Shown: piece by piece, positions 5,368 to 63,289 of the stretch | How the letters are laid out: each line of letters starts with the position of its first letter | Numbering within the stretch: position 1 is the stretch's first letter | NCBI GenBank assembly: GCA_040758135.1 | Contig: JBFLWA010000005.1 | Span: 73,102-137,101, forward strand | Length of the DNA: 64,000 nucleotides | Direction of reading: 5' to 3' | From: Bacillota bacterium | GTDB lineage: Bacteria; Bacillota; Sulfobacillia; JBFLWA01 | Notes under the pieces: generated by a model | What the model was told of the DNA's origin: nothing | Seen by the model: only the letters and a program-made list of their open reading frames with translations | Database searches by the model: none | Translations under genes and position numbers: made by a program

Positions 5368-5982
5368 TCAACCAATGAAGAGGTCGAGAAAAGCCAGAGT
5401 CCCCGAAACCCACATGATAAGCCCCAGAGCCAGGACCGCCGCTAACACCGGTAGGGCTACGGCCAGGGCAGCCCGCTGGGTTGGCAGCCCCTCGGCCTCG
5501 TGGACCGACAGGACCTGGAGCCCCAGAGTCCACAGAACCAGCAGCACCCGCACTCCCAGCCAGGCTGAGGCCAGGGGGGTCAGGTTAATAAAGGAAAGCG
5601 CCGGCCGCAGTAGCTGTGGCGCCGAAGCCAGGGCCAAACCACTGAGCAGGCTGCCCACGCTCCCGCGACCCCCTAAGAGGCCGGCTGTGGCATGCACCAC
5701 CGCCCCCCAGAGCAGCCAGCCGGCCAAGGCCAGCGCCAACCGGATAACTACCAGTGTCGACGGGTTGGCCAAGACAGGGCCGATCGGGGTCATCAGCCCG
5801 GCAATGGCCGCCGGAAGAGCCCCGGCTGCGGTACTGACAACCAGCACCGCCCCAGCCAGCCACAGTGGCCGCTCTGCAGCGGCCCTCCGGAGCGTCTCGC
5901 GCGGGGCACTAAGCGTGCCGCCGATGAGCTCCAGAATACCCATGGGCTGTGGCGGGATCTCTACGGTTTCAGGCCGTTCCAT
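5368..5982 (-). CDS. polytopic membrane protein (Yip1-like)
   Basis: 204 aa, highly hydrophobic with multiple predicted TM segments. Overlaps the sppA start by ~20 nt. Confidence 0.35.
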   Translation of the reverse strand: MERPETVEIPPQPMGILELIGGTLSAPRETLRRAAAERPLWLAGAVLVVSTAAGALPAAIAGLMTPIGPVLANPSTLVVIRLALALAGWLLWGAVVHATAGLLGGRGSVGSLLSGLALASAPQLLRPALSFINLTPLASAWLGVRVLLVLWTLGLQVLSVHEAEGLPTQRAALAVALPVLAAVLALGLIMWVSGTLAFLDLFIG

Positions 5983-6875
5983 ACCGCGCCACCCCCGAAG
6001 CTGCCCAAGAGAATGCGATCCAGCTTAGTAAACAGGCGGTAGAGCAAGATCTCCCAGTTGGAGAGCTCGCCATACCGTTGGGTGCGGTAGCGGTCCTGGA
6101 TCCCGGCCATCTGGGCAGCGATACCGATCGCGTCATAGATGCTGCCAAACTGGTCGATGAGCCCGGCCTCCAGCGCCTGGCGCCCGGTCATAATCCGGCC
6201 GTCGGCCACTGCCTCCACCTGGGCCCGGGTCAGGTTGCGGCCTTCCATGATGGCATCAATGAACTGGTTGTAGATATCGTTGACCATGGCCTGAAGGAGG
6301 TCACGCTCTGTATCCGTCATGGGCCGGTTGGGATTGCCGATATCCTTCAGGGGGCCGCTCTTGATCATCTCGAAGTCAATCCCCAGCTTGCCGTAGAGCC
6401 CCTGGAGGTTCTGGATCTCCATAAAGACCCCGATGGAGCCAGTCATGGTGGCTGGGTTGGCTACTATATAATCGGTGACGGCCGCCACCCAATACCCGCC
6501 CGAGGCGGCCATATCGCCCATGGAGGCCACCACTATTTTGCCGGCCGACCGCAGGCGCTTGATCTGGTTGCCGATCTCCTGGGCCGCGGCGGCGCTACCA
6601 CCGGGGCTGTTCAGCCGGATGACCACGGCGGCGATGTTATCATCCCAGAGTGCCTCTTCCAGATAGTGCAGGATAATGTCACTGCCCGAAGCCGAGTCAA
6701 ACAGCCCCGAGTAGCCTTGGCCACCGGCGATTACGCCCTCAATGTCGATAATGCCGATGGTCCGGCCCCGGGGACCGTTCTGCAGCTCAGGGAGAACCAG
6801 GCTGGCCGCGATGGCGGCAACGATGGCCACCAGCAGAACGATTCCCCCGAGAGTCTTCTTCCGCAAGGCATTCAC
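5961..6875 (-). CDS. sppA: signal peptide peptidase SppA (36K type)
   Basis: 304 aa. N-terminal TM segment, ClpP/crotonase-like S49 motifs (GGYWVAAVTDYIVANPATMTGSIGV). Confidence 0.8.
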   Translation of the reverse strand: MNALRKKTLGGIVLLVAIVAAIAASLVLPELQNGPRGRTIGIIDIEGVIAGGQGYSGLFDSASGSDIILHYLEEALWDDNIAAVVIRLNSPGGSAAAAQEIGNQIKRLRSAGKIVVASMGDMAASGGYWVAAVTDYIVANPATMTGSIGVFMEIQNLQGLYGKLGIDFEMIKSGPLKDIGNPNRPMTDTERDLLQAMVNDIYNQFIDAIMEGRNLTRAQVEAVADGRIMTGRQALEAGLIDQFGSIYDAIGIAAQMAGIQDRYRTQRYGELSNWEILLYRLFTKLDRILLGSFGGGAVWNGLKP

Positions 6876-6987: not shown

Positions 6988-8190
6988 TCACTCGGAGACC
7001 TGCACCGTCCCGTTCTCGCTGAGTTCCCGGGTGCCCTGACGGCTGACTACCCGGCCCTCGGCGACAAAAACCTTGGGCAACCGGGCACTGACCGCAATGC
7101 GCCGGGCCTCGATGGTCACCGGTGTCCCGGCCTCAACCTCCGGCAGGTAGGTCACATCTACCAGCGTCTGCTGCATGGTAATCCGGCCCACCACCGGCAG
7201 TTCGCCGTACTCCGACCAGATCAGTCCCCGGGTGGGGGAGAATCTGCCGGCCGGCATTCCCAGCCAGTTAGCCAGACAGGCCACCATTACCTTAACCATG
7301 TAAACGAAGCGCAGAGTCCGGCTAACCGGCTCCATCCCCACCCCATCACTGTAGCCGACCGGAAGGACCGCTATTCGCATGTCGCGCCTGGCCCGGAAAA
7401 TGGGTCCGTAAGAGACTCCCTCGCCCGCCTTCACTTCGGTGATGCTCACTACCTTGCTCTTCAGCTTCCACGGGTCGAGGAGCGGAAGCTTGGTTTCGAC
7501 TCCGGCCCGCCCGTAAAGCAGGTTCCCGATGCGCACCATATCTAGCCTCGACTCAGGAAGCAGGATCGCCGCTTCGCTGTTGGCCGCATGCTTGATAGGG
7601 ATAGCGATCCCCTCAGAAGCCAGTTCAGCCACGAGATCCATGAAGATGGTGAGTTGCCGCCTGGTCAGTTTCAGGTTGCCGGCAGTGGCCGCAGAAAAGT
7701 GGGTGAAAATCCCCTCCACCTCGATGCTATCCAGCTCACGCACGGTCTCCAGGAACTCGGGCACTGCCGTGGGGCGGAGGCCGAACCGGTTCAGCCCAGT
7801 GTTTACCTCAATATGAACCTTCACCTTGTCCCGAGAACGGCGGGCAGCCCAGTTCAGTGCCTGGACTACCTCCAGTTGCCAGACGGCTACAGTGACCCCG
7901 GCCTCTGCCGCCAGTTCGGCCTCCTCGGGCAGAATGCTCCCTAAGACCATGATCGGAGCCGTGATACCCGCGTTCCTCAGCTCAATGGCCTCCATCAGGT
8001 TGGTTACACCCAGGTCGGTGGCGCCATTGTCCAGAGCCACTCTGGCCACCAGCACAGCGCCATGGCCATAGGCATCACCCTTGACCACAGCCATGAAGCG
8101 CCGGTGCTCACCAATGAGCTTCCGTACTTCCCGCACATTATGGCCGATCGCGTCCAGGTTGATCTCAACGAAACTCGGGCCCAGATACAT
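6988..8190 (-). CDS. alr: alanine racemase
   Basis: N-terminus MYLGPSFVEINLDAIGHNVREV...AVVKGDAYGHG contains the PLP-lysine motif. C-terminal VGRITMQQTLVDVT matches the Alr C-domain. There is a ~30 aa insertion relative to typical Alr. Confidence 0.8.
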   Translation of the reverse strand: MYLGPSFVEINLDAIGHNVREVRKLIGEHRRFMAVVKGDAYGHGAVLVARVALDNGATDLGVTNLMEAIELRNAGITAPIMVLGSILPEEAELAAEAGVTVAVWQLEVVQALNWAARRSRDKVKVHIEVNTGLNRFGLRPTAVPEFLETVRELDSIEVEGIFTHFSAATAGNLKLTRRQLTIFMDLVAELASEGIAIPIKHAANSEAAILLPESRLDMVRIGNLLYGRAGVETKLPLLDPWKLKSKVVSITEVKAGEGVSYGPIFRARRDMRIAVLPVGYSDGVGMEPVSRTLRFVYMVKVMVACLANWLGMPAGRFSPTRGLIWSEYGELPVVGRITMQQTLVDVTYLPEVEAGTPVTIEARRIAVSARLPKVFVAEGRVVSRQGTRELSENGTVQVSE

Positions 8191-9924: not shown

Positions 9925-10374
9925 TTACCGGGCCTCGGGCTCCCAGTCCTCGTCGCCCTCGTCGATCTCCGGGTCCGACTCGGCCGGCTCCTCAAGTTCG
10001 TCAATATCCACCTCTTCATCGTCATCGTCTTCGTCCTCATCCTGGCGTCCGGCGTCATATAGGAGATCCTCTTCCGGCTCCAGGACAGGCCGCAGCTTAA
10101 CCGGCTGTGGCCGGCGGGTTGGCGTCGTCTTGCGCGGCATCGTCCGGGGCGCCCAGTTGGCCAGGCCCCAGAAACCCCCGCCGCTATGGACAAAGCGTAC
10201 ATCGAGGTTCATCTCGGTGTAGATTGCCGCCAGTTCACCGGGGGGAAGCTCTCCGTCACCGGCTGGCGAAGCCGCCTGCAGCAGGAGCTCGCGATAGTGC
10301 AAAGGGGCGCCTCGCTGGAGGAGGATCTCATGAGCCCTATCCAGGATGGTTCGGCGCTGTGCGCTACCCGGCAT
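9925..10374 (-). CDS. rpoE: DNA-directed RNA polymerase delta subunit
   Basis: 149 aa. N-terminal HARE-HTH region with the AAIYTEMNLDVRFVHSGGGFWGLANWAP block (compare B. subtilis RpoE [29 protein letters not shown]). Poly-acidic D/E C-terminal tail. Conserved rpoE-pyrG synteny. Confidence 0.75.
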   Translation of the reverse strand: MPGSAQRRTILDRAHEILLQRGAPLHYRELLLQAASPAGDGELPPGELAAIYTEMNLDVRFVHSGGGFWGLANWAPRTMPRKTTPTRRPQPVKLRPVLEPEEDLLYDAGRQDEDEDDDDEEVDIDELEEPAESDPEIDEGDEDWEPEAR

Positions 10375-10489
10375 GGTATCAACCCTTTCTCGGAATTTGG
10401 AATAGTATATATTCGCTCACCTGCAAGATTTCCCTTCCGGAGCGAACCGCCAGCCGCGGGCGTTAGTATCGCGGCCGCCGGGGAGAGAA

Positions 10490-11390
10490 GTGACACTCCG
10501 CCGGGGATAAATCCCCCCGGCTTCTTCGGGCACCCGTGCGTAGTCGCTGCTCGTAGTATTTGCGGCGTGGCCGCTACTACGCTGAGGGCGTAATGGGCGA
10601 CGGATACCTCGGGCGGTGCCAGGCCCGGCCTGATTCCCGTTGCGGAGCGCCGGGCCGGTATCCCTTCGGGCTGTCCTTTTCACCATACCGGGCCACATCT
10701 CAACCGCAAACAGCGCATCTCCTACTGGTATCCCTCGGGTTGACCCGGCTGGCGATTAGGCCGTGCTCCCAGGCTTTGTATTTTGCATATCACGAAACCG
10801 GTATTCCAGGTTTTGTACTATAGTTTTGGTAGGCATTGTTACAGCCCCTTTTGAGCCTCGATGTATTTCTTGATGGTTCCGCCTGACACGTTGCCCGCCG
10901 TGGCGCTGAAATAGCTCCTTGTCCACATGGAAGGCAATTTGAGAAGGTGGGGGAATTCTTTACGCAAGTGGTGTGAAGTAATTCCCTTGATTTCCTTAAT
11001 CACGTCCGCCGCTGAATCGGACGGCCATACCCGTACAAATAAGTGAATATGGTCCGGTTGGATGGCTAACTCTAAAATCTCCCAGCCTTTCTCTTCGCAC
11101 TTGCCTTCGATGATTTCTCTGCACCGGGAGGCTACTTTGTCGGTTAATACCGGCTTGCGGCGTTTTGGCGTCCACACCAGATGGTATACAATCAGATGCA
11201 CTCTATGCTCGTCTCTTACGTAGTCCATGGTGTTATCACCCCGTTGATGTTGATGTCTACATCATAACATGGCTCAACACCTGCTGCAACACTTTGCCAG
11301 AAACGACCTCGGCTAAAGCCAATGATAAACCCGCCTATTTACCCGGGCTAAAGCCCGGTAACTTACGGTGGGTATAAGGTTTTGTCAGAT
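10490..11390 (-). mobile_element. IS200/IS605-family insertion sequence (tnpA only) inserted upstream of rpoE; boundaries approximate
   Basis: TnpA CDS plus subterminal hairpins: CCGGGC-TAAA-GCCCGG at ~11342..11357 (left end) and CCGGGGA-TAAA-TCCCC(CC)GG at ~10500..10520 (right end). The right-end segments GTGACACTCCGCCGGGGATAAATC and GGCTTTGTATTTTGCATA recur at 36724..36770. Confidence 0.7.
10839..11228 (-). CDS. tnpA: IS200/IS605 family transposase TnpA (Y1 HUH)
   Basis: 129 aa. HUH motif HIHLFV, catalytic Tyr region YFSATAG, VYHLVWTPKRRK N-terminus. Confidence 0.85.
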   Translation of the reverse strand: MDYVRDEHRVHLIVYHLVWTPKRRKPVLTDKVASRCREIIEGKCEEKGWEILELAIQPDHIHLFVRVWPSDSAADVIKEIKGITSHHLRKEFPHLLKLPSMWTRSYFSATAGNVSGGTIKKYIEAQKGL

Positions 11391-11516
11391 TATTCACCTC
11401 CTGGGGATTAGTCTTCCCCATCGAGGTACGCCTGTACCTATGGAGCCAGTCGTGCCGGGCGTATTATGTGAGCAGTGGAGCCCTTCCACGCATCACTAAC
11501 CCGGGAGGTGATACAC

Positions 11517-11597
11517 GTGGGAGTCACCCATTGCAATGATGCCTTCCAGGTGCTGATCCTCATCATCCTGCTGTTCTTCTTCCTCGGCGCTGAGTAA
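11517..11597 (+). CDS. YjcZ-like small hydrophobic (sporulation-type) peptide, 26 aa, GTG start
   Basis: GGGAGGTGA RBS 5 nt upstream of GTG. Translation (M)GVTHCNDAFQVLILIILLFFFLGAE, followed by a GC-rich hairpin. Resembles YjcZ-family micro-proteins (GGGFALIVVLFILLIIVG core) by pattern only. Confidence 0.35.
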   Translation: MGVTHCNDAFQVLILIILLFFFLGAE

Positions 11598-11614
11598 GGA
11601 GGCGGCAGACGGCA

Positions 11615-11642
11615 GACACCGGCCCCCGGCGGGGCCGGTGTC
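11615..11642. terminator. GC-rich hairpin (putative terminator) after the micro-ORF and at the 3' side of the kam operon
   Basis: GACACCGGCCCC-cggc-GGGGCCGGTGTC perfect 12-bp stem. No strong U-tract on either strand. Confidence 0.35.
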
Positions 11643-12064
11643 TAGCTGTCCGGCTGTTTACAAGCATTCTCCAACGCTCCGTGGTCTGGCACCCTGGCCG
11701 CATCCCCCTTGACGCTATAGCATATAGCTGGTAACTTCGTCTTCACAAAGGAAGTGTGTCTAGGGTTCCGTGCCTGATATGTGGGCAGCCTGGACCGAGC
11801 GGCACAGCCCGTAGAGGTACTCCGTGGGGATAAAAGACCCGAGCGGCAAGTTCCTGATCAGGAACCCCGCCGGCTTCTATCTGGCTTTCAGTGTTAAAGA
11901 AAGCCATCGCATCATCCTGTGACGTACGCGCCGGTAACTCTAGATGACTGTCGCCCACGGCATACCATCTATCTCCGCATTACCATACACCACTATGCCA
12001 ATTTGCCACCCATATTGTGCCTTTTATGCTTTCGCGTTTTTGATTCTAGGTCTTGGCCTAACCC

Positions 12065-12823
12065 TTACATCCCTCGCCTCACTATTTCCTGGGCAATAAA
12101 CGAGGCCACCTCCGGCGGCACTGTCCCCGGCCCGAAGCCGGCGTCGTAGCCCAGTTCTACCGCCAGTTCATGCGTTATGCGTGGTCCACCGCAGATGAGC
12201 ACCACCCGTTCGCGGATCCCCTCGGCCTCCAGCAGCTCCACCAGCTGGGACAGGTTGGGGATATGGACATTGCGCTGGGTGACCACCTGCGAGACCAGAA
12301 TGGCATCGGCGTTCTCCTCGATGGCCCTGGCCACCAGCACCTCATTGGGGATCTGGCTCCCCAGGTTGATGGCGACCAGCTCCGGGTATCGCTCCAGCCC
12401 GTAGCGGCCATTGTAGCCCTTCATGTTCATGATGGCATCCAAGCCGACGGTATGCGCATCAGTACCGGTACAGGCGCCGACCACTACCAGCTTGCGCCCG
12501 ATCCGCTCCCGAATGAAGGCATTGCACTCGTCGAAGTCCATCACATCTACCTCGGCCTTGGGCACCTCGATGGCAGTGTAGTCCACCGAGTGCAGGCACT
12601 TCCCGTATACAACGAAGAAGGTGAAACCAACGCCCAGGTCGTGCATGAAGGTGACATTGGGATGGTCAATCCCCATCTTCAGAGCCAGCTGCCGGGCCGC
12701 CTCCATGGCCTCTGGTCCGGCCGGCACTGGCAGGGTGAAGCTAAGCTGCACCGCCCCATCGTCCAGGTGATCACCGTAGGGCCTGATGCGGGTCAGGTCG
12801 ATCCGGTCCCGAGAGTCAGTCAT
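12065..12823 (-). CDS. kamE: D-lysine/L-beta-lysine 5,6-aminomutase beta subunit (B12-binding)
   Basis: 252 aa. Cobalamin-binding DxHxxG motif (GACTGTDAHTVGLD). Overlaps the kamD stop (ATGA coupling). Confidence 0.85.
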   Translation of the reverse strand: MTDSRDRIDLTRIRPYGDHLDDGAVQLSFTLPVPAGPEAMEAARQLALKMGIDHPNVTFMHDLGVGFTFFVVYGKCLHSVDYTAIEVPKAEVDVMDFDECNAFIRERIGRKLVVVGACTGTDAHTVGLDAIMNMKGYNGRYGLERYPELVAINLGSQIPNEVLVARAIEENADAILVSQVVTQRNVHIPNLSQLVELLEAEGIRERVVLICGGPRITHELAVELGYDAGFGPGTVPPEVASFIAQEIVRRGM

Positions 12824-14379
12824 GCCCCTTCACCTCCCAGCATCAATTCATAGAACGGGTTGAAGTAATCGTCCCCTCTGGCTATCACGCCCTCGCGCCC
12901 CTTGCCGCCATTGCGCGGCCGCTTGACCGAGGCGAAGAAGCCCTTCTCCAGGGCGGTCCACAGCCCGATCTCCCGGATCTTCTCCAGCGTCTCGGTGGCT
13001 TCCCGGAGCACGTGGTTAGCCCGGTGGTGGATCCTACCTCCCTCGCGGAAGATTACTTCATCCGCCAGGTGCCAGGCGTTGTTCATAATGTACTTGGAGT
13101 TATTAATGGATAGGAAGCGGTCGTGCATGTAGGGGGTGTGGATGGCCTCGGTCAGGATCCCCACCAGGTGGATCTCCTGCCCGGTCAGGATAGAGACCAG
13201 GCTGTGCATGGCCTCCATGGCGTGACCCTTGAAGATGTCTCCGGTCATGTACTTGGTGGGCGGCATGTACTTCAGCGGCGAGTGGGGGAAGATCTCCCTG
13301 GTCATCTGGGCCTGGGCGATCTCCAGGAGCAGCCCGTCCTCGTAGTCGGGGTTGATGGCAAAAACGTGGCCGAACCCGGTCTGCTCAAGCTTCAGCCCTG
13401 ACCGCAGCGCAAATTGCTCATTGATAAGCTGCGAGGTGAGGACGGTATGGGCGGCCGCCACCGGGTCAGCGGTGGTCATGTAGTTATCCTCGCCGGTGTT
13501 GATGATCACCCCGGCGTAGGCGTTGATCAGCCGGGAGAAGTACTGGTCGACGAAGGTGCGCTCCATGTTGATATCCCGGAAGAGGATACCGTACATAGCG
13601 TCATTGAGCATCATATCCAACCGCTCCAGCGCTCCCATGGCCGCGATCTCCGGCATGCAGAGGCCCGAGCAGTAGTTAACCTGCCTGATATAGCGCCCGA
13701 CCTCTTCGCTGACCTCGTCCAGGGCCTGCCGCATGATGCGGAAGTTGGCCTGGGTAGCCGGGGTACCGCCAAAGCCCTCTTCCACCCCGTAGGGGACGAA
13801 GTCCAGCAGACTCTGACCGGTGGTGCGGATGACGGCGATGATGTCGGCCCCGGCCTTTACCGCCGCCTTGGCCTGGACTACATCCTCGTAGATGTTGCCA
13901 CTGGCGACAATCACATAGAGCCACGGCTTATGGCCTTCGCCCAGGCGGGCCAAGCGGGCCTCGCGCTCCCGGCGGTTGTCGTCAATCCGCCGGCAGGCCT
14001 CCCGGGCCAGTGAATAGGCCTCCTGCCGCACCTCCTCCCGGTCACCGGGCGGCACCTGACACAGGTCGATGCGGCCGGCCGCTACCCCTTCAGCTACCTC
14101 CTGCGCGGTGAGGTTATGGGCCAGCATGGCATTGGCCAACCAGTAGGCGGCGCCGCGCGTCAGGCCGCCACCGGCCGCGATGTTCTCCACTACCACATTG
14201 GGCAGGGGAGCTCCCTCTTCATTGACACCATCGATGCCGAACAGGCGGAGGACGGTGCGCTCCACGCTGATGGTGGTGTGGCTTTCGATAAATTCCTGGA
14301 TAGGGGCGACGATCTCGGCCGCGGCCGCCCGCGCCCGGTTGATCAGGCCCTGATCCAGCTTTAGTACTCCGGTTTTCAT
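12820..14379 (-). CDS. kamD: D-lysine/L-beta-lysine 5,6-aminomutase alpha subunit
   Basis: 519 aa. Typical KamD N-terminus MKTGVLKLDQGLINRARAAAAEIVAPIQEFIESHTT; PLP/TIM-barrel subunit. Confidence 0.85.
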   Translation of the reverse strand: MKTGVLKLDQGLINRARAAAAEIVAPIQEFIESHTTISVERTVLRLFGIDGVNEEGAPLPNVVVENIAAGGGLTRGAAYWLANAMLAHNLTAQEVAEGVAAGRIDLCQVPPGDREEVRQEAYSLAREACRRIDDNRREREARLARLGEGHKPWLYVIVASGNIYEDVVQAKAAVKAGADIIAVIRTTGQSLLDFVPYGVEEGFGGTPATQANFRIMRQALDEVSEEVGRYIRQVNYCSGLCMPEIAAMGALERLDMMLNDAMYGILFRDINMERTFVDQYFSRLINAYAGVIINTGEDNYMTTADPVAAAHTVLTSQLINEQFALRSGLKLEQTGFGHVFAINPDYEDGLLLEIAQAQMTREIFPHSPLKYMPPTKYMTGDIFKGHAMEAMHSLVSILTGQEIHLVGILTEAIHTPYMHDRFLSINNSKYIMNNAWHLADEVIFREGGRIHHRANHVLREATETLEKIREIGLWTALEKGFFASVKRPRNGGKGREGVIARGDDYFNPFYELMLGGEGA

Positions 14380-15440
14380 ACACTTCCCCTCCTCCCTAGG
14401 GCCTGACGGCCCAGAACTACATCAAATACAGGAAGCGGATAGAGAAGCTCCCCCACCGCTTCCAGAAACTCTTCCGGTTGGTAAGATGGTCCCACCGGGG
14501 CCCAGGGGTTGGTGGTCACCGCCAGCAGGTTGATGTCTCGGGCCACCTTCAAGCCCAGACCCAGCCGAGCCATCTGGGTCCAGTGTTCACCGTCGATGAA
14601 GACCCGGGTGGGGTCGGCTACCATTAGGTCGAGCCCGGCCAGGTGCTCTCCGGCGGCCATCAGCCCATCCAGCATTCTGCCGGTGAGAGCGCCGCCGAAG
14701 ATGATGCCCCGGCCCCCCCGGGGCAATGCCCGGGAAATGGCCTCAGCCTGCTCCAGCCCGGTTCTGATCTCCAGGGCCCGGTAGTTGCCCTCACCGTCCA
14801 CCACCGCGACCTCCCGGCGCGCGCTGGCGGTGAGGATCATCTCCCTCAGTCCGGGGTCGGCCACGGCCGGCAGGCGGAAGGTCCGTACCACTTGGCGAGT
14901 ACGCTCCAGGGTCAGGCGCATCGATGGTCCCAGGGCGGCACCGGTAGCCAGGATGGTGGCCTCGGTTACCCCGGGGGCAGCCGAAGCCACCCGGTCGAAG
15001 GCGCCGTCGGCCAGAACGCGGCTGCAGCCCTGGTCGTGCAGGAGCCTCAGACATTCCCGCATCTGGCTGATGGTACTCGGGCCCACCAGCACTACCTCGC
15101 CCGCCTCCACCGCCCGGGCCAGGAGAACCCTTCCCAGGCGGGTCTCGTAGGGGGTCTCTCCGATGACCTCCAGTGGCGCCCGGCTCTCCCGAATGGCCTC
15201 AAGAGCGGTGGCCAGGAGCGCCCCGGCCGGAACCCGTACCGGCGGCTTGGGTAGCCGGGTGACGGTGTCCACCTTCTCCCCGTCACGGCCAATGGAGGTA
15301 AGGCCCAGGGAGTATCCTTCCGCCTGGGCCTCCTCGATAATGTGGTTCAGAGTTGTGGTTTTGCCTACGTTCTTGGCGATTCCCACCACCGCGATGGTGC
15401 GGGCACCGGCACGGGCGATCAGGTCGATCAACCGGCTCAC
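14376..15440 (-). CDS. P-loop NTPase of unknown function embedded between kamA and kamD (possible aminomutase accessory/reactivation factor)
   Basis: 354 aa. N-terminal Walker A IAVVGIAKNVGKTTTLNHI. Overlaps both neighbours by 4 nt (operon-coupled). Confidence 0.5.
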   Translation of the reverse strand: MSRLIDLIARAGARTIAVVGIAKNVGKTTTLNHIIEEAQAEGYSLGLTSIGRDGEKVDTVTRLPKPPVRVPAGALLATALEAIRESRAPLEVIGETPYETRLGRVLLARAVEAGEVVLVGPSTISQMRECLRLLHDQGCSRVLADGAFDRVASAAPGVTEATILATGAALGPSMRLTLERTRQVVRTFRLPAVADPGLREMILTASARREVAVVDGEGNYRALEIRTGLEQAEAISRALPRGGRGIIFGGALTGRMLDGLMAAGEHLAGLDLMVADPTRVFIDGEHWTQMARLGLGLKVARDINLLAVTTNPWAPVGPSYQPEEFLEAVGELLYPLPVFDVVLGRQALGRRGSV

Positions 15441-16684
15441 TTTCTCTTCTTCCTCTCCAGCCCTTTGGGTTCCAGGCTGGGGGCCTGGCCGGTGAGCAGT
15501 TTGCCCAGGCCAATGTTGAACCCTTCATGTCTGGTGCCACAGAGCTGGCAAACCTCAGGCTGGCCGGGGAGGTCGGTCGGCTCGTTGTAGACCGAGATGA
15601 CCCCCTCGTAGTTGCGGAGGACAATCTTCCCCTGCCCCTGCGAGACCAGGTACTGGGGGCCGACCGGAATCTTGCCGCCGCCACCCGGGGCATCCACCAC
15701 GAAGGTGGGGACTGCCAGACCGGTAGTGTGCCCCCGGAGCAGCTCGATAATCTCGATCCCCCGGGCAACCGGGGTACGGAAATGCTCGATACCCCGGGAG
15801 AGGTCGCACTGGTAGATATAGTAGGGGCGGACCCGGAAACGAAGCAGCCCGTGTACCAGCTCCCGCATGACATTGGGGCAATCGTTAATCCCCCGCAGGA
15901 GCACCGTCTGGTTGCCCAGCGGGATCCCGGCATCGGCCAGCTTGGCGCAGGCCGCCTCGGCCTCCGGGGTGAGCTCCTTGGGATGGTTGAAATGGGTGTT
16001 GAGCCACAGGGGGTGATACTTTCTCAATAGCCCCACCAGGTCATCGGTGATGCGCTGGGGCAGCACCACCGGGGTCCGGCTGCCGATACGGATGATCTCC
16101 ACATGGTCGATGCGGCGCAGGCGGCTGAGTACATATTCCAGGCGCTCCTCGCTGACAGTCAGCGGGTCGCCTCCTGAGAGCAAGACATCGCGCACCGAGG
16201 GCGTCTTGTCAATATACTCAATGGCTGTGTCCAGCTCGGCCGCGGGGCGGGCCCGGTCGGTCTGCCCGGCGAAGCGCCGGCGGGTACAGTGTCGGCAATA
16301 CATGGAGCATTGGTCGGTGATGAGGAAGAGCACCCGGTCGGGGTAGCGGTGGGTCAGCCCCGGGACCGGTGAATCCACATCCTCGTGCAAGGGATCGAGC
16401 ATATCGTTCCTGCCCACCGTCAGCTCGCGCGCGGTAGGTACCGCCTGCATCCGGACCGGGCAGTGCGGGTCGTCCGGATCCATCAGGGTCGCGTAGTAGG
16501 GGGTGACCGCCATCCGCAGTGCCGTCAGGCACTGGATAACTCCCTGCTCCTCTGCAGTGGTCAGGTTGATGACTTCCTTCAGTTGTTCGACAGTGGTCAA
16601 GCGGCTGGCAATCTGCCAATGCCAATCATTCCATTGCTCCTGGGTGATATCGTGCCAGAGCGGGATAGTCCAATAATCGCGCAT
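15437..16684 (-). CDS. kamA: L-lysine 2,3-aminomutase (radical SAM, PLP)
   Basis: 415 aa. CxxxCxxC motif CSMYCRHC; KamA-specific blocks (TPYYATLMDPDDPHCPVRMQAVP). Confidence 0.9.
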   Translation of the reverse strand: MRDYWTIPLWHDITQEQWNDWHWQIASRLTTVEQLKEVINLTTAEEQGVIQCLTALRMAVTPYYATLMDPDDPHCPVRMQAVPTARELTVGRNDMLDPLHEDVDSPVPGLTHRYPDRVLFLITDQCSMYCRHCTRRRFAGQTDRARPAAELDTAIEYIDKTPSVRDVLLSGGDPLTVSEERLEYVLSRLRRIDHVEIIRIGSRTPVVLPQRITDDLVGLLRKYHPLWLNTHFNHPKELTPEAEAACAKLADAGIPLGNQTVLLRGINDCPNVMRELVHGLLRFRVRPYYIYQCDLSRGIEHFRTPVARGIEIIELLRGHTTGLAVPTFVVDAPGGGGKIPVGPQYLVSQGQGKIVLRNYEGVISVYNEPTDLPGQPEVCQLCGTRHEGFNIGLGKLLTGQAPSLEPKGLERKKRK

Positions 16685-16706
16685 GGCCTCCTCCCCCTTC
16701 CCAATC

Positions 16707-17747
16707 TTACTTGACGTACAGCTCCTCGAACATCCGGCGCAGTTCCGGGCTCTCTCTCAGGCACTGCAGGGCGATCTCGGCGTGGCCCCGGGTGTACCCG
16801 TTGCCGATGATCATGGTGGTGTCCCGGCCGATGCCCTCGGCGCCCAGGGCCGCCGCGGTGAAGCTAGTGGCCATGCTGAAGAAGTAGATCAGGCCATCAT
16901 CTTTAGTGGCCAGGATAGTCCCCATCTCGGTGCCCGGAATGTTGACACAGTTAATGGTAATATCGGCCATCTGGCCATCGGTGACCTCTTTGACCTTTTC
17001 CATCAGGTCCAGCGGGTTACCGGCATCGCCCTGGATGACGATATCGGCAAAGCCGCTATCCTTGGCCCGCTGGACACTGCCGAGGCTGCGTCCGACCCCG
17101 ATAACCCGGCCGGTGACCCCGGCCCGCTTCTTGGCCTCGTAGAGGCAGAGGAGGCCCGACTTGCCGCCGGCACCGATGACCAGCACGGTGTCGCCCGGCT
17201 TGACCAGCTTGGCCGTTTGGGCCGGCGCGCCGGCCACATCGAGGACGGCCAGGGCCAGCTTATCATCCATATCGTCGGGAAGCTTAGCATAGATGCCGCT
17301 CTCGAAGAGAATGGCCTGCCCCTTGATGTCTACCTGGTCGGTGTCCTGGTGGATGGCGATGATCTCCTCGATGACCAGCGGGGTGAGGGAGAGGGAGACC
17401 AGGGTGGCGATGCGGTCGCCGACCTTGAGGTCGCGTTTGTCGGCCAGCGCCGGGCCGATCTGGGCAATGGTACCGATGAGCATGCCGCCCGAGCCGGTGA
17501 CCGGGTTGTGGTGCTTGCCGCGCTGGGCAACGATCCCCTTCATGATCTCTTTGATCTTATCATCATCGTGCCCGGCCTGGTCTTTGATCTGAGTGAAGCT
17601 GGCGGCATCCACATTCAGGGTCTGGACATTGATGAGGATCTCGTTGTCGTAAATCTCCATGGTATTGTCAATTCTCCAGGCTGGCTGCGGCAGCACCCCC
17701 TTGGGTTCGATCACTCGGTGAGAGCCGTACGGACAACCTCTCTTCAT
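16707..17747 (-). CDS. kdd: L-erythro-3,5-diaminohexanoate dehydrogenase
   Basis: 346 aa. MKRGCPYGSHRVIEPKGVLPQPAWRIDNTMEIYDNEILINV matches Kdd; Rossmann GxGxxG (VIGAGGKSG). Confidence 0.75.
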   Translation of the reverse strand: MKRGCPYGSHRVIEPKGVLPQPAWRIDNTMEIYDNEILINVQTLNVDAASFTQIKDQAGHDDDKIKEIMKGIVAQRGKHHNPVTGSGGMLIGTIAQIGPALADKRDLKVGDRIATLVSLSLTPLVIEEIIAIHQDTDQVDIKGQAILFESGIYAKLPDDMDDKLALAVLDVAGAPAQTAKLVKPGDTVLVIGAGGKSGLLCLYEAKKRAGVTGRVIGVGRSLGSVQRAKDSGFADIVIQGDAGNPLDLMEKVKEVTDGQMADITINCVNIPGTEMGTILATKDDGLIYFFSMATSFTAAALGAEGIGRDTTMIIGNGYTRGHAEIALQCLRESPELRRMFEELYVK

Positions 17748-21944: not shown

Positions 21945-22403
21945 TCAGTACCAGAGGGTGGCCGCCGCGAAACAGCAGGCGACGCCTCTTACCTGGGCCT
22001 CAATGGCCTTGGATTTTACCTCCCGGAGCGACATCCCGCGGCTGGCGAAGGCCTCCTCGACCATGGCCCGAACTGCCCGGTCGGCTTCCTCGCGGGTGCA
22101 CTTGCCCGAAAACTCCATAATCATCCCGAAGGAGTTCTCTGAGAACCCGACACCGATGGCCGCCGAGATAACCTCGCCCGGAGAGTCGCTGATGATCGCA
22201 CCATAGGCGGTGGGAGTCAGCGACCCCGGTGGGATCTCCAGCCTGTCCACATACTCGGCCCCGGGCGGCAAAATGCTGCTGACCTTGATCAGGTTGAGGC
22301 TGCCGACCCCGGCATCGAGCAGAGCGTGGTCGAAGGCGTTGAGGCGGCTCTTCCCTTCCCCGTATCCGACTACCAGAGCGAATTTCTTGGGTGTTGGCAG
22401 CAT
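21945..22403 (-). CDS. pdaD: pyruvoyl-dependent arginine decarboxylase, paralog 2
   Basis: Start refined to ATG 22403 (MLPTPKKF...) with a GGAGGG RBS. RLNAFDHALLDAGVGSLNLIKVSSILPP...MEFSGKC...ACCFAAATLWY. Confidence 0.75.
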   Translation of the reverse strand: MLPTPKKFALVVGYGEGKSRLNAFDHALLDAGVGSLNLIKVSSILPPGAEYVDRLEIPPGSLTPTAYGAIISDSPGEVISAAIGVGFSENSFGMIMEFSGKCTREEADRAVRAMVEEAFASRGMSLREVKSKAIEAQVRGVACCFAAATLWY

Positions 22404-22550
22404 GATGGCCCTCCTTATGGTTGCTGGCTTTCTTCCTATTATTCTCTGCACCCCGGCGCCCATATTACGATCCGGCATGGCGCAGAATAGTAGCCACCGT
22501 ACGGTCAAAGACTAACCAAGACGGCAGTTAGCTTCGCAGGAGGGACCTTA

Positions 22551-39823: not shown

Positions 39824-40225
39824 TTAGTGCTGTGGCTGAACTTGCGGTGATGATGCCCTGGCGATGGAAGGCTGGACACCGCGGCTCAGTTCCATAGTGG
39901 TGATCCCCCTGGCCGCAACGTCCTTTTCAATTACTCTTACAGCCACCATGGGATCCACCTGGTCTCCGCAGGTAAAGGAATCAACCGCCGCGTAGCCTAG
40001 CTCCGGCCAAGTGTGGATGGCCAGGTGGGATTCGGCCAGAATGGCCACCCCAGAGAGGCCGTGAGGATCAAAGCGGTGGACATAGACACTGATGAGTTGT
40101 GCCCCGGCCTCCTGCGCGGCGCGGCGGAGCATGCTCTCCAGGCACTCGGCGTTGTCTAGCGCCCGCTCACTGCAGAAAGTCAGTTCCGCCAGAACCTGCG
40201 AACCCAACTGGTGCTTCATGCGCAT
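39824..40225 (-). CDS. speH: S-adenosylmethionine decarboxylase proenzyme (pyruvoyl-dependent, class 1B)
   Basis: 133 aa. Processing-site region VAILAESHLAIHTWPELGYAAVDSFTCG. Confidence 0.85.
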   Translation of the reverse strand: MRMKHQLGSQVLAELTFCSERALDNAECLESMLRRAAQEAGAQLISVYVHRFDPHGLSGVAILAESHLAIHTWPELGYAAVDSFTCGDQVDPMVAVRVIEKDVAARGITTMELSRGVQPSIARASSPQVQPQH

Positions 40226-59011: not shown

Positions 59012-60418
59012 TCATTTCGGGTAGTAAGTTATGGGATCGACGGCGGTACCATCGACCCGTACCTCAAAGTGCAGGTGCGATCCTGTGCTGCGTCCGCCCA
59101 ACCTAACGTCATAGCTATTGCCGACCAGAGCGATCTCCTGCTGCTTGGTAACGATGTCGCCCACCTTCACCAGGAGCTTAGAGCAGTGGCCGTAAACAGT
59201 AACCAGGTGACCCCGGCCGTGGTCGATCTTAACTGTCCACCCCAGGGCGGTCCAGCCGGCCTCGACTACGGTGCCGCTATCCGCGGCCTTGATGGGAGTG
59301 CCGGTTGGGGCGGCAATGTCGATACCGTAGTGAAAACCGCTTCTCCGCCACCCGAACCCGGAGGTGATAGTCCCCACCACCGGCCAGATGAACTGTCCGG
59401 TTCCCCGGTCGGGAATCTGCTTGGTGCCGACCAGCACCACCTGGGTAACCGGCTGGCGCAATGTGCGCGAACTCAAAACAGTGCGGCTTACTTCCCGGCC
59501 GTTCCGCCGGGCAATGGAGACAGTCTTCTCCCGCAAGCCGTTCTGCCCATAGGTCTGGATGACCCGCTCCCAGGGCCACTTGGTGGGGTCTTCGACGGTC
59601 CCTGTGCTAAAACCGATGGCTTCGGTATAGGTCCGTTCCTCAGTGGTGACAACCGTCAGGTAGGGTTGGGGTTTTACCAGTTTAATGGTCTGCCCGGGAC
59701 GGATGAGGTTAGGCTTGATCTCGGGGTTGGCAGCCGACAGGTCACTGACGGTCAGACCATTGGCTGCCGCAATGCTCCACAGCGTCTCGCCTCGTTGAAC
59801 CGTGCGCTCCTGGATGACCTCATAACCCTGCTCCAGAATGTTCCGGGCCTGCTCCGGGGTTTTGATGAGAGATACCCGGACCCCGCTCTCCAGGATTTTG
59901 TACGATTCCTCAAACCTGGCCGAGGTCAGTATGCTCCCATTGCTGCTTGCTAGCTGCTTGTAGTGCTCCATGATGTCGGAGAGGATCTGCTCGGCCTCGG
60001 CGGCACTGGCCAGCGCGACCACATTGCGGCCACCGACCAGTATGTAGGCACCCTTAGTTAGCAGTGGCAGTGCATCAGCGAGCTTCTGTCTGAGAACCTC
60101 ACCAGTGTCAATTGGGGTATCGGCCGGCAGACGGTCTCGGCGGAAGCGAACCTCGCCGGAGACCCAGACCTCGTCCCCGTAGATAGCCTGGGCTTCTGCG
60201 GTGAGCTGGGCGATGATGGTTCGTACTTCACGGCTGGTCTTGACCCAGGCTACCGTACTGCCATCAAAGGTAACCGCGTAGGTGGCGGTCGTGTTGACAA
60301 CGAACAGGGTAAGGGCCAGCAGAGCGATGCCCAGAGCGGCCAGCTTGACGCGGTTCACCCGGTACTTCGGTTTTGGTAGTACGGAGTGCGGTTGGGGCGT
60401 AGCCAACGGGTTACTCAA
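59012..60418 (-). CDS. membrane-anchored LysM + M23 (LytM-type) peptidoglycan metalloendopeptidase
   Basis: 468 aa, TTG start after GGAAGGAGGG. TM anchor; LysM (RGETLWSIAAANGLTVSDLSAANPEIKPNLIRPGQTIKL); M23 block (GFHYGIDIAAPTGTPIKAADSGTVVEAGW...GHLVTVYGHCSKLLVKVGD). Confidence 0.75.
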   Translation of the reverse strand: MSNPLATPQPHSVLPKPKYRVNRVKLAALGIALLALTLFVVNTTATYAVTFDGSTVAWVKTSREVRTIIAQLTAEAQAIYGDEVWVSGEVRFRRDRLPADTPIDTGEVLRQKLADALPLLTKGAYILVGGRNVVALASAAEAEQILSDIMEHYKQLASSNGSILTSARFEESYKILESGVRVSLIKTPEQARNILEQGYEVIQERTVQRGETLWSIAAANGLTVSDLSAANPEIKPNLIRPGQTIKLVKPQPYLTVVTTEERTYTEAIGFSTGTVEDPTKWPWERVIQTYGQNGLREKTVSIARRNGREVSRTVLSSRTLRQPVTQVVLVGTKQIPDRGTGQFIWPVVGTITSGFGWRRSGFHYGIDIAAPTGTPIKAADSGTVVEAGWTALGWTVKIDHGRGHLVTVYGHCSKLLVKVGDIVTKQQEIALVGNSYDVRLGGRSTGSHLHFEVRVDGTAVDPITYYPK

Positions 60419-60525: not shown

Positions 60526-61881
60526 TTAACTCTCGGCGACCAATTCCCCCCTTCTGGCTTGCAGGTAAAGGGCCAGTTCGATGCGCCTCTTCTGCATCTC
60601 ACAGCCCAGGGCATAAGGCTCTGATACTGTGCCATTGAACAGATCGGCATTCGCATGACACCCACCGCCGCAGTAGAACTGGGCCCAGCATTCACGGCAG
60701 GTTGGCTTACTGCGGGCGTGGGTCAGCCGGAGCTGTTCGGTGAGGTCCGGCCGCTCAATCCCGGTTTCCAGGGTGCCCAGGCGATACTTGCTCCGGCCCA
60801 CGAACTGGTGGCAGGGAAACAACTCGCCGGCGGGCGTGACCACCAGGTACTCCCAGCCCGCCCCGCAACCGGTAATCCGCTTGGTGACACACGGGCCCGC
60901 GGCCGGCTCCAGGGCAAAGTGGAAAAAGGTGAACGGCGCCCCGGCTTCGGCTCGCTCGGCGCAGAACTCGGCCAGCCGATCATATTCGGCCAGGATCGCC
61001 GGCAGTTCCGCGTCTTGCAGGGCATGGCGGAAGTGCCCCTCGGCTACCACCGGTTCCAGAGAGATGATGTTAAACCCCTGTTCCACCAGGTACCTGGCGT
61101 CATTGGTGAAATCCAGATTGTGGCGGGTAAAGGTTCCCCTTACATAATAGTTCTGGCCTTGACGGCTCTTGACCATGGACCGGGAATTCTCCAGGATGAC
61201 CTGGTGGGTGGACTGGCCGCTCCGGGTCTTGCGCAGTCGGTTGTGGACTTCGGGACGGCCATCCAGGCTCAGCACTACGGCGATGCCCTTGTCGTTGAGG
61301 TATTCCTGCATTTCGCGGGTAAGGCCAAAGGCATTGGTCGTGACGGTAAAGCGGAAGGTTGCGCCCTTCTGGGTGCCGCACTCTTCGGCGTAGGCCACAG
61401 TCCGGCGCAGCACCTCGAAGTTCAGGGTGGGTTCTCCGCCGAAGAAATCGACATCAAAATGCCGGCGGTCGCTCCCGTGCTCCAGCAGGAAGTCGATGGC
61501 ACGCCGGGCGGTCTGCTCTGACATGAGGCCGCGGTCACTGCCAAAGGGCCCGCCCTCGGCGAAGCAGTAGCCACAGGCCAAATCACAATCGTGGGCCAGA
61601 TGCAGACACATGGCCTTGAAGCCACCGGGCTCGGGCTCGAACCCGTCAGGCACCGGACAGGGCGCGTCGACCAGACCCTGTTCACGCAGGGCCGTCAGCT
61701 CAGCCAGGACGGACGCCACCGCTGGTGGATCATGACTCGCCGATGCCCGGGCGAGCGCGGCTTCATCCCCAGCGCAGAAAGGCTCAACCAGCTCCCAGGC
61801 GAGGTCATCGACTTCGTGGAGGGATCCGGAGAAAACATCTAGTACGAATCGACGCCCAGCGACTGTAAAACGGTGGATCAT
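60526..61881 (-). CDS. scfB: radical SAM/SPASM thioether-crosslink-forming SCIFF peptide maturase
   Basis: Start refined to ATG 61881 (MIHRFTVAGRRFVLDVFSGSLHEVDD...) after GGAGGTGG. CxxxCxxC CLHLAHDCDLACGYC; C-terminal Cys-rich SPASM region; lies immediately downstream of a SCIFF precursor gene. Confidence 0.85.
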   Translation of the reverse strand: MIHRFTVAGRRFVLDVFSGSLHEVDDLAWELVEPFCAGDEAALARASASHDPPAVASVLAELTALREQGLVDAPCPVPDGFEPEPGGFKAMCLHLAHDCDLACGYCFAEGGPFGSDRGLMSEQTARRAIDFLLEHGSDRRHFDVDFFGGEPTLNFEVLRRTVAYAEECGTQKGATFRFTVTTNAFGLTREMQEYLNDKGIAVVLSLDGRPEVHNRLRKTRSGQSTHQVILENSRSMVKSRQGQNYYVRGTFTRHNLDFTNDARYLVEQGFNIISLEPVVAEGHFRHALQDAELPAILAEYDRLAEFCAERAEAGAPFTFFHFALEPAAGPCVTKRITGCGAGWEYLVVTPAGELFPCHQFVGRSKYRLGTLETGIERPDLTEQLRLTHARSKPTCRECWAQFYCGGGCHANADLFNGTVSEPYALGCEMQKRRIELALYLQARRGELVAES

Positions 61882-61912
61882 GGGGCCACCTCCGCTAGCA
61901 GCGATAAAGCAA

Positions 61913-61942
61913 CTCCCGTCAGGCGTCAGCCGCCAACGGGAG
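61913..61942 (-). terminator. intergenic stem-loop between scfA and scfB (candidate partial terminator/attenuator)
   Basis: CTCCCGT...ACGGGAG 7-bp stem with an internal GGCG/CGCC extension; weak U-tract downstream on the minus strand. Confidence 0.4.
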
Positions 61943-61973
61943 TACATTTCCGCGTTTTTGGGTAAAGTAAGAG

Positions 61974-62117
61974 TTAGCGCGGACAGACCTGATTGCCGAC
62001 GGTGCAGGATGTCTTACAGGCCGACTGGCATGAACTCTGGCAGGCGGCACAACGCTCGTCGACCTGAATATGCTTGATGGGAGCCTTGAGGACTGTCTTG
62101 ACATGCGTCTTTTTCAT
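61974..62117 (-). CDS. scfA: SCIFF (six-cysteines-in-forty-five) ranthipeptide precursor peptide
   Basis: Hand translation from ATG 62117 (AGGAGGG RBS 10 nt upstream): MKKTHVKTVLKAPIKHIQVDERCAACQSSCQSACKTSCTVGNQVCPR*. Six Cys and the CQSACKTSCTVGNQ core typical of the SCIFF family. Not in the ORF track (47 aa). Confidence 0.85.
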   Translation of the reverse strand: MKKTHVKTVLKAPIKHIQVDERCAACQSSCQSACKTSCTVGNQVCPR

Positions 62118-62142
62118 GGTCAGGATGTCCCTCCTGTTAGAT

Positions 62143-62171
62143 GGCTAGGAGCATTATACCACAAGGGGTGA
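62143..62171 (-). promoter_or_regulatory. extended -10 sigma-A-type promoter for scfA
   Basis: On the minus strand: TTTACC, 17 nt spacer, TGG-TATAAT, ~20 nt upstream of the RBS. Confidence 0.5.
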
Positions 62172-62275
62172 TGGTGGTAAAGGCAGCGATGCCTGGCAGG
62201 GATTGGCAGGTGACCGCCCTTTACATAAGGTGGTATAATTGATGTACCTAGCCAAGTAACAGATAAAGAGGTGAT

Positions 62276-63289
62276 GTGATGCCGAAGCCGGAGCCGAATC
62301 CCCGGCATTCCCGGCCGTGGCTGCTTTTCGCGGCCCTGGTAGTGCTGGTGGGTTTAGGCCTTGGCGGTTTCTGGGCGGCAGCAGCTATGGAGCCGAGCGG
62401 CTCGCCCAGTATGGCAGGGTATGATCAACTTGACGATCTGGGCCCCAGCCCGGGGGCGGCAGCCCTGAGCCAAGGCGACGAAGCATCCGATGCGACTACT
62501 GATGCAGTAGCTTCCGAACAGGAGTGTGAAGCGGGGGAAGAAACGAGCACTCCCCTGGTAGTTACCTATGTCGTGAAGAGTGGTGATACGCTGTGGGATA
62601 TTGCCATTGCCCACCAGACGACTATCACCTCCGTCAAGTACAATAACGGTCTTTCCAGCAATACCTTGCGCCCGGGCCAAGAGCTTAAGATCCTTACCAT
62701 CGACGGACTGCTCTACAAGGTTAAGTCGGGCGATACCCTATCCGGCATTGCCAGTCGATTTGACACCTCAATTAGCAAGATCGAGGAAGCCAACGGCATT
62801 GACCGCACCTCGCTGCTAGCTATCGGGACACAGCTCATCCTGCCTGATGCCACTCCTCCCCGCCAGGTAACCGTTAAGACCGCCAGCACTGGAGCGGGCA
62901 GGGGACAGACCGCCACCGTCACCGGCAATTACATCTGGCCGGTGCGGGGCCGCATCACATCTCCCTATGGCTGGCGGTGGGGGACGATCCATACCGGTAT
63001 CGACATTGCGGCACCTACCGGAACATCGGTTAAAGCCGCCCGGGCCGGCCAGGTGACTCATTCCGGATGGCTCGGCAATTACGGTTATACGGTAGTCATC
63101 GACCACGGCGGCGGTATGTCCACCGTCTATGCCCATAACTCGGCCCTGTTGGTCAGTGCCGGCCAATGGGTTGAGCAGGGAACAGTAGTCGCCCGCGTGG
63201 GAAGCACCGGTCGCAGTACCGGGCCCCATCTCCATTTTGAGATCAGGGTCAGTGGGCGGCCCATCGATCCCAGACCTCACCTTCCGTAG
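62276..63289 (+). CDS. secreted protein with two LysM domains and a C-terminal M23 peptidase domain
   Basis: 337 aa. LysM repeats (YVVKSGDTLWDIAIAH..., YKVKSGDTLSGIASRF...); M23 block (GIDIAAPTGTSVKAARAGQVTHSGW...GYTVVIDHGGGMSTVYAHNS...GSTGRSTGPHLHFEIR). Confidence 0.8.
   Translation: MMPKPEPNPRHSRPWLLFAALVVLVGLGLGGFWAAAAMEPSGSPSMAGYDQLDDLGPSPGAAALSQGDEASDATTDAVASEQECEAGEETSTPLVVTYVVKSGDTLWDIAIAHQTTITSVKYNNGLSSNTLRPGQELKILTIDGLLYKVKSGDTLSGIASRFDTSISKIEEANGIDRTSLLAIGTQLILPDATPPRQVTVKTASTGAGRGQTATVTGNYIWPVRGRITSPYGWRWGTIHTGIDIAAPTGTSVKAARAGQVTHSGWLGNYGYTVVIDHGGGMSTVYAHNSALLVSAGQWVEQGTVVARVGSTGRSTGPHLHFEIRVSGRPIDPRPHLP

Follow-up and report, generated by a model that had tools for sequence, protein, structure and literature searches.

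SCIFF peptides and their ScfB maturases have formed a curated family since 2011, supported by a crystal structure and by in vitro chemistry. SCIFF systems are recognized by a precursor encoded within 500 bp upstream of a radical-SAM/SPASM maturase and on the same strand, and it has already been remarked in print that the precursors are easily overlooked owing to their small size (PMC5300114). Here we describe a 47-codon gene and the adjoining enzyme gene in a 64,000-nt stretch of DNA (the window) from the 61% GC chromosome of an uncultured member of the Bacillota. Judged from their sequences, the two genes are very probably the scfA-scfB pair of this well-known family.

The first SCIFF to be reconstituted in vitro was Tte1186a, with its maturase Tte1186, from Caldanaerobacter subterraneus, and the structurally characterized system is CteA/CteB (thermocellin) of Clostridium thermocellum (PDB 5WGG, 5WHY). 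CteB is composed of RRE, radical-SAM and SPASM domains and holds two auxiliary [4Fe-4S] clusters; in the crystal, the CteA leader extends the beta-sheet of the RRE and Aux I has the first cysteine of CteA as a ligand (PMC6231123). In vitro, Tte1186 and CteB each install a single thioether that joins the fourth cysteine (Cys32) to Thr37, and in CteA made in E. coli the link was mapped to Thr34, at C-gamma, hence the term "ranthipeptides" (PMC8326336).

Loci and Searches

Protein homologues were sought among 5.8 billion protein clusters, and relatives of ScfB were compared across 80 listed scfB loci (at least 80 exist) from GTDB species representatives. In these loci, scfA was located by regular expression on the DNA upstream of scfB. 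About 50 open reading frames (ORFs) of the window were annotated with Pfam and NCBIfam models. Score cut-offs were 50 bits for TIGR03973, 425 for TIGR03974 and 27 for TIGR04085, with gathering thresholds (GA) of 27 for PF13165 and 21.5 for PF13186; those of the sibling models were 855 bits for NF040492 (not_ScfB), 340 for NF047865 (PapB), 453 for TIGR03906 (QhpD) and 349 for TIGR03942 (anSME). Spacers between scfA and scfB were measured in 75 loci and their hairpins were scored by z-scores of the minimum free energy of the whole spacer. The nearest genomic relative, locus L001, served as the reference for codon comparison.

The Precursor Gene and Its Peptide

The features that define the pair are as follows.

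61974..62117, reverse strand: scfA, 47-aa SCIFF precursor (TIGR03973 and PF13165 matches, public gene call, purifying selection on the core)
62129..62135, reverse strand: Shine-Dalgarno sequence AGGAGGG of scfA, read from the sequence, 11 nt before the ATG
60526..61881, reverse strand: scfB, 451-aa SCIFF maturase with putative RRE-like N-terminus, radical-SAM and SPASM regions (TIGR03974, CteB alignment, NCBI name)
61889..61893, reverse strand: ribosome-binding site GGAGG of scfB, 7 nt upstream of the ATG at 61881
61564..61587, reverse strand: radical-SAM motif C99-x3-C103-x-Y-C106 of ScfB (regular expression on the translation; aligned to CteB CNLRCKYC)
60601..60891, reverse strand: SPASM region of ScfB (TIGR04085 63.8 bits, PF13186 22.1 bits, eight cysteines)

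The scfA frame runs from ATG to TAA and translates as MKKTHVKTVLKAPIKHIQVDERCAACQSSCQSACKTSCTVGNQVCPR. Its predicted leader occupies residues 1-20 or so and includes the motif HVKTVL, an instance of the H-[IV]-K-T-[IVL] leader motif common to nearly all SCIFF members. The core, CQSSCQSACKTSCTVGNQVC, carries the six cysteines (Cys23, 26, 30, 34, 38 and 45) together with Thr36 and Thr39, and fits both the spacing C-x2-C-x3-C-x3-C-x3-C-x6-C and the pattern CQ(T/S)SCQSACKTSC(T/G)V(G/A)NQxC, which is nearly invariant among the scfA genes of the listed loci. Searches with curated hidden Markov models (HMMs) placed the peptide in the family, at 60.9 bits for TIGR03973 (E = 8.2e-17, model positions 2-42 of 43) and 62.3 bits for PF13165 (E = 4e-17). 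The protein clusters yielded 791 homologues at E <= 1e-3; the best 120 of these all contain PF13165, and those that bear names are called SCIFF except for two labelled "hypothetical protein". A first-pass annotation, made from the letters of the window, had proposed a minus-strand SCIFF-type peptide of this length here, with an AGGAGGG ribosome-binding site, and both are present in the sequence.

The codons of scfA also behave as those of a gene. Across the 28 C-terminal codons compared with L001, 14 are identical, 11 differ synonymously and 3 non-synonymously, and this excess of synonymous over non-synonymous differences indicates that scfA is translated and that its core is under purifying selection. 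Five contigs from independent assemblies carry an identical peptide and maturase, and the sources include two NCBI accessions for each protein and the Logan assembly of SRR10029121. Because the same sequence recurs in this way, a frameshift or assembly artefact in scfA is excluded, including the sequencing error that the first-pass annotation had named as a way in which the ORF might have been created.

The Maturase

The longest ORF at the scfB locus would encode 473 aa (60526..61947), which we rejected as an over-extension by 22 codons that runs across the spacer hairpin described below. The 451-aa start is preferred because GGAGG lies 7 nt upstream of it, the public gene call agrees, and the MIHKF start region of CteB aligns there. 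The resulting protein scores 499.2 bits with TIGR03974, over model positions 1-450 of 451, so that the enzyme as well as the peptide lies above its curated cut-off. Pfam models for SCIFF, Radical_SAM and SPASM all match the products of the two genes. CteB (5WGG/5WHY) aligns to ScfB residues 1-443 with E = 6.9e-122, and nothing else in the PDB matches at E <= 1e-10. The match starts from the first residue, and residues 1-35 align strongly, a similarity of sequence to the part of CteB that adopts the RRE fold.

The CxxxCxxC motif and C-terminal auxiliary-cluster cysteines first read from the translation are likewise in place. The radical-SAM motif reads C99-DLA-C103-G-Y-C106, and the SPASM cysteines are C331, C339-x12-G-x4-C357, C395-x2-C398-x5-C404-x3-C408 and C427, all eight of which align to cysteines of CteB. 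The nearest non-self ScfB in the protein clusters is only about 52% identical, and the host lineage is poorly sampled; the top identity to this ScfB among the listed loci is 50%.

Layout of the Pair and Annotation Status

The two genes lie on the same strand, with the scfA stop codon ending at 61974 and the scfB ATG at 61881, so that the maturase begins 92 nt downstream of the precursor, exactly as first proposed, and the precursor falls well inside the 500-bp upstream interval used for SCIFF recognition. The spacer is ordinary for the family, whose median over the 75 measured loci is about 87-89 nt. The proposed scfA-scfB architecture recurs in essentially every related locus with upstream DNA: scfA was found directly upstream of scfB in 74 of the 80 listed loci. 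Among the other six, one cysteine is replaced in two (L002 and L060), a third (L003) shows a partial core frame only, and two (L023 and L071) retain about 110-150 nt of upstream DNA, too little to judge scfA.

The gene had been described as unannotated. This holds for the length-filtered ORF track, in which a 60-aa cut-off hid scfA and put in its place two overlapping ORFs, one of 61 aa and one of 65 aa, that are spurious; it does not hold for the public record, where the gene is called and named. On contig JBMOND010000001.1 of the metagenome-assembled genome (MAG) GCA_049323415.1 ("Bacillota bacterium"), to which the window was matched by exact-protein look-up, the same 47-aa gene is called with a precomputed PF13165 match, and the NCBI names in that assembly are "six-cysteine ranthipeptide SCIFF" and "thioether cross-link-forming SCIFF peptide maturase". 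The pair is thus an already known and already annotated, ordinary member of its family. With the family known and this exact pair labelled by the NCBI pipeline, its discovery value is small, and the lessons are practical ones: a 60-aa cut-off conceals a real 47-aa gene behind two wrong ORFs, and a longest-ORF rule over-extends scfB by 22 codons.

Variant Precursors among the Relatives

Several relatives depart from the usual precursor. In three Clostridia MAGs, a single scfB is preceded by a gene for an 87-aa fused precursor that contains two full SCIFF units in one frame, leader and six-Cys core twice (L034 5676..5939, L058 5678..5941 and L066 5677..5940). In L002 (~5855..6000) the fifth cysteine is replaced by isoleucine (CKTSITVGNQSC), and in L060 (~2183..2360), from Sporolactobacillus inulinus, the first cysteine, which is the Aux I ligand in the CteB crystal, is replaced by histidine (GGHGECQ). 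Matches to SCIFF or ScfB were also seen in MAGs labelled Chitinophagales, Methylocystaceae, Saccharibacteria, Betaproteobacteria or Deltaproteobacteria (P0020, P0045, P0047, P0156 and L002); in taxa so far outside the Bacillota they probably stem from contaminated or mislabelled bins, if not from rare transfer.

The window peptide itself belongs to a small subgroup. In most SCIFFs the leader-core junction reads G-G-C-G-E/A-C and the C-terminus C-E-N/K, whereas in the window peptide and four protein clusters (P0003-P0006) the junction is D-[ED]-[RK]-C-x-x-C and the C-terminus V-C-P-R. The peptides of these clusters all come from metagenomic contigs of 61-67% GC, and this subclade without Gly-Gly and ending in VCPR has so far been found only in high-GC uncultured Bacillota. 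Together with the persistent LysM-M23 neighbours considered below, it is the sole new angle that the locus offers.

Expression Signals

Two further features lie upstream of scfA and in the spacer.

62153..62181, reverse strand: predicted sigma-70-type promoter of scfA, TTTACC, 17-nt spacer and TATAAT with an extended -10 (TGgTATAAT), from a consensus scan
61903..61945, reverse strand: intercistronic stem-loop between scfA and scfB, from folding and an inverted repeat

The predicted promoter matches the consensus at 10 of 12 positions, with the TG. In subclade loci L085, L087 and L089, whose ScfB is about 50% identical, the -35 (CTTTAC/CTTTGC) and TGTG(G/A)TATAAT are kept upstream, as is the -10 of the divergent M23 gene, and GGAGG stands at the equivalent place upstream of scfA in subclade loci. 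From these signals, scfA would be transcribed from a conserved vegetative-type extended -10 promoter and translated from a strong Shine-Dalgarno sequence. The 158-nt divergent promoter region held no operator-like inverted or direct repeats, the search returning the spacer hairpin only. Scanned against Rfam at gathering thresholds, the whole window gave no match, so that scfA is preceded by no known riboswitch or leader RNA; a tRNA scan likewise found none.

The arms of the spacer stem-loop form a perfect 8-bp stem (61943..61936 with 61919..61912) that can be lengthened to about 12 bp, and TTGCTTTAT comes after it. A terminator-like hairpin 3' of the precursor gene is a family-wide feature, since the 75 spacers have a median z of -3.39 (56 of them at z <= -2) and 41 of the 75 show a hairpin and after it a run with 5 or more T within 9 nt. 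The window hairpin is accordingly a candidate leaky terminator or mRNA-stabilizing element, which would most plausibly set a high ratio of precursor to enzyme transcript: by limiting or stabilizing transcription within the 92-nt spacer, it probably leaves more precursor mRNA than maturase mRNA.

Proposed Chemistry and Role

We infer the thioether chemistry by homology to CteB/CteA and Tte1186/Tte1186a. The RRE-like N-terminal domain of ScfB would bind the leader around H5-V-K-T-V-L, and the [4Fe-4S] cluster held by C99, C103 and C106 would cleave S-adenosylmethionine to give the 5'-deoxyadenosyl radical. This radical would then take a side-chain hydrogen from core Thr39 or Thr36, the equivalents of CteA Thr37 and Thr34, after which the thiol of Cys34 (equivalent to CteA Cys32) would close a non-alpha (C-gamma) thioether ring with the assistance of two SPASM auxiliary clusters. 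The donor C34 and both acceptors, T36 and T39, are present in the window peptide.

As for function, the mature peptide may be a conserved endogenous peptide, regulatory or signalling, rather than an antibiotic. Two observations hint at this: the core hardly varies even between hosts whose maturases share only 40-50% identity with the window ScfB, and the locus is without an immunity, exporter or leader-protease gene. In solventogenic clostridia, Chen et al. (2020), as cited in PMC8326336 and PMC8102284, connected SCIFF with quorum sensing and with the expression of sporulation genes. The role of SCIFF peptides does not become more testable through this locus, because its host is an uncultured MAG.

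Some observations weigh against this account. The peptide clears the TIGR03973 cut-off by only about 11 bits, and it has no Gly-Gly before the first cysteine, a feature present in most SCIFFs. The window hairpin taken alone is not significant, at z = -1.44 against dinucleotide and -1.88 against mononucleotide shuffles. The site of the CteA cross-link is itself disputed, between Thr37 in vitro and Thr34 in E. coli (PMC8326336), and the proposed role as an endogenous signal is founded on the one study of solventogenic clostridia and the argument from conservation.

Neighborhood and Alternative Interpretations

The pair is flanked by two genes that, as the first-pass annotation noted, encode LysM-M23 proteins; Pfam finds LysM and Peptidase_M23 domains in both.

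62276..63289, forward strand (divergent from scfA): two LysM domains and an M23 peptidase, HxxxD and HxH motifs intact (Pfam; context only)
59012..60418, reverse strand: LysM, G5 and M23 peptidase, 107 nt downstream of scfB (Pfam; context only)

Downstream of scfB on the same strand come, in order, the LysM-G5-M23 gene, a Germane + PGA_cap gene, Peptidase_MA_2, a gene of the MurA-type EPSP-synthase family, and atpI with the F1Fo ATP synthase operon; beyond the divergent LysM-M23 gene are ABC permeases. Beside scfAB there is no gene for an exporter, a leader peptidase or immunity. To call these surroundings sporulation-flavored was an overstatement: among the roughly 50 window ORFs, the sporulation-linked matches are one Germane (GerM-like) domain and sub-threshold SpoIIQ and SafA similarities only, and the neighborhood is one of cell-envelope and housekeeping genes rather than of sporulation.

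It is conceivable, if quite unlikely, that a functional link joins the SCIFF pair of this lineage to the LysM-M23 endopeptidases on either side and to the cell-envelope genes downstream; the peptide might, for instance, be a regulator of cell-wall remodeling or sporulation, or these enzymes might process it. In the CPR-ending subclade the M23 neighbours persist at identities of only about 50% for ScfB and 41-49% for the M23 proteins. Homologues of the LysM-G5-M23 gene lie downstream of scfB in L085, L090-L092, L001, L054 and L002, and the order scfB, M23, Peptidase_MA, murA extends to L054, a Desulforudis MAG, and L002. Disruption of the SCIFF genes in C. beijerinckii, according to the account in PMC8102284, lowered sporulation-gene expression. 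Against this, the wider set has M23 neighbours in only 3 of the 80 listed loci (L001, L054 and L002), and we rejected M23, PGA_cap and MurA neighbours as a family-wide SCIFF synteny, as they are found in 3-4 of the 80 listed loci and confined to the subclade and a few deep-branching relatives. The position of the pair also shifts. The divergent M23 gene stands as in the window in L085 and L087/L088, L085 sharing the window layout, and its counterpart lies downstream of scfB in L090-L092; in L090-L092 and L001 both M23 genes and PGA_cap follow scfB. In the window scfAB lies between the two M23 genes and in L001 and L090 it precedes both, as would suit an independent unit that adjoins a conserved chromosomal block. 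Moreover, scfA has its own conserved promoter, neither M23 protein has a sporulation equivalog match above cut-off, and synteny among related genomes can arise from inheritance alone. As scfAB moves relative to the M23 block and is served by its own promoter, we read the adjacency as inherited chromosomal order and not as an operon. We consider it equally doubtful that SCIFF peptides of the GG-less/VCPR lineage target cell-wall remodeling enzymes or share their control; were this true, it would be the first genomic handle on the physiological role of SCIFF.

It is very improbable that the enzyme is a related SPASM protein with another substrate (of the anSME, QhpD or PapB type, or of the not_ScfB orphan class) beside which the small ORF is incidental. 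Some database homologues do carry the label "anaerobic sulfatase-maturating enzyme", and there are sub-threshold matches to NF040492 not_ScfB (426.5 bits), NF047865 PapB (241.4), TIGR03906 QhpD (238.3) and TIGR03942 anSME (85.4). All four scores stay below the curated cut-offs, however, whereas that for TIGR03974 lies above, a bona fide SCIFF peptide is encoded 92 nt upstream, and CteB is the sole structure matched at E <= 1e-10; assignment as an anaerobic sulfatase maturase, QhpD or PapB was rejected on these scores. Finally, there is next to no chance that scfA is a random reading frame or assembly artefact, as might be supposed of a short ORF in GC-rich DNA that gives many spurious ones and here has two longer wrong-frame ORFs overlapping the gene (61919..62104, reverse strand, 61 aa; 61880..62077, forward strand, 65 aa), for the HMM E-values near 1e-17, the 791 homologues, the synonymous excess within the core, the recurrence in independent assemblies and the conserved ribosome-binding site and promoter have already refuted it.

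Other Features of the Window

The rest of the window holds lysine-fermentation genes, argS, polyamine genes, a class A penicillin-binding protein and an Mrp antiporter. A lysine-fermentation-type cluster (12065..17747, reverse strand) comprises lysine 2,3-aminomutase (radical SAM + LAM_C), D-lysine 5,6-aminomutase alpha and its B12-binding beta subunit, a 354-aa protein without a Pfam match (14376..15440) and a zinc-dehydrogenase-like protein. A 129-aa IS200-type Y1 transposase (10839..11228, reverse strand; PF01797, 129.9 bits) has rpoE-like/pyrG on one side and the lysine aminomutase genes on the other, in a segment where GC dips to 0.565 (10001..12000); the ~800 nt to its right (11230..12060) contain no ORF of at least 150 aa, so there is no obvious TnpB partner. 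Tandem paralogous genes for pyruvoyl-dependent arginine decarboxylase (PF01862; 21312..21842 and 21945..22508, both reverse strand) adjoin spermidine synthase and an agmatinase/arginase-family gene, with S-adenosylmethionine decarboxylase farther off at 39824..40225. In a 400-aa alanine racemase homologue (6988..8190, reverse strand), the C-terminal domain model is matched only at positions 3-47 of 127, which suggests a divergent or interrupted C-terminal domain.

Comparison with Described Maturation Systems

The window pair was compared with described SPASM-type systems. QhpD and anSME share the SPASM-type radical-SAM architecture of ScfB, and QhpD also forms non-alpha thioethers (PMC8326336), but ScfB scores below both cut-offs and no QhpC or sulfatase substrate gene is adjacent. 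The maturase PapB, which is related to ScfB, acts on PapA of Paenibacillus polymyxa to give freyrasin, a ranthipeptide with six Cys-Asp C-beta thioethers (PMC8326336). Unlike PapA, the window peptide has no repeated C-x3-D, and ScfB falls short of the PapB cut-off (241 vs 340 bits); one Thr C-gamma link would therefore be expected, and not six Asp C-beta links.

Within the SCIFF family, a single ring of the Cys32-Thr37 type is reported for Tte1186a/Tte1186 (PMC8326336), and the equivalent residues occur in the window peptide, which differs from Tte1186a at the junction and C-terminus in the same way as from CteA. Compared with CteA, the window peptide has D-E-R-C-A-A-C rather than G-G-C-G-E-C at the leader-core junction and ends in V-C-P-R-stop rather than in a C-E-N/K extension; its maturase is only about 40-50% identical to any other member, and its host is a 61% GC uncultured member of the Bacillota, not a low-GC Clostridium. 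Like CteA/CteB, the pair is laid out as precursor and maturase in two genes, and ScfB aligns with CteB over the putative RRE-like N-terminus, the CX3CXYC motif and all SPASM cysteines. The window peptide also keeps the first cysteine of CteA, its donor cysteine (C32, here C34) and both candidate threonines (T34 and T37, here T36 and T39) (PMC6231123, PMC8326336).

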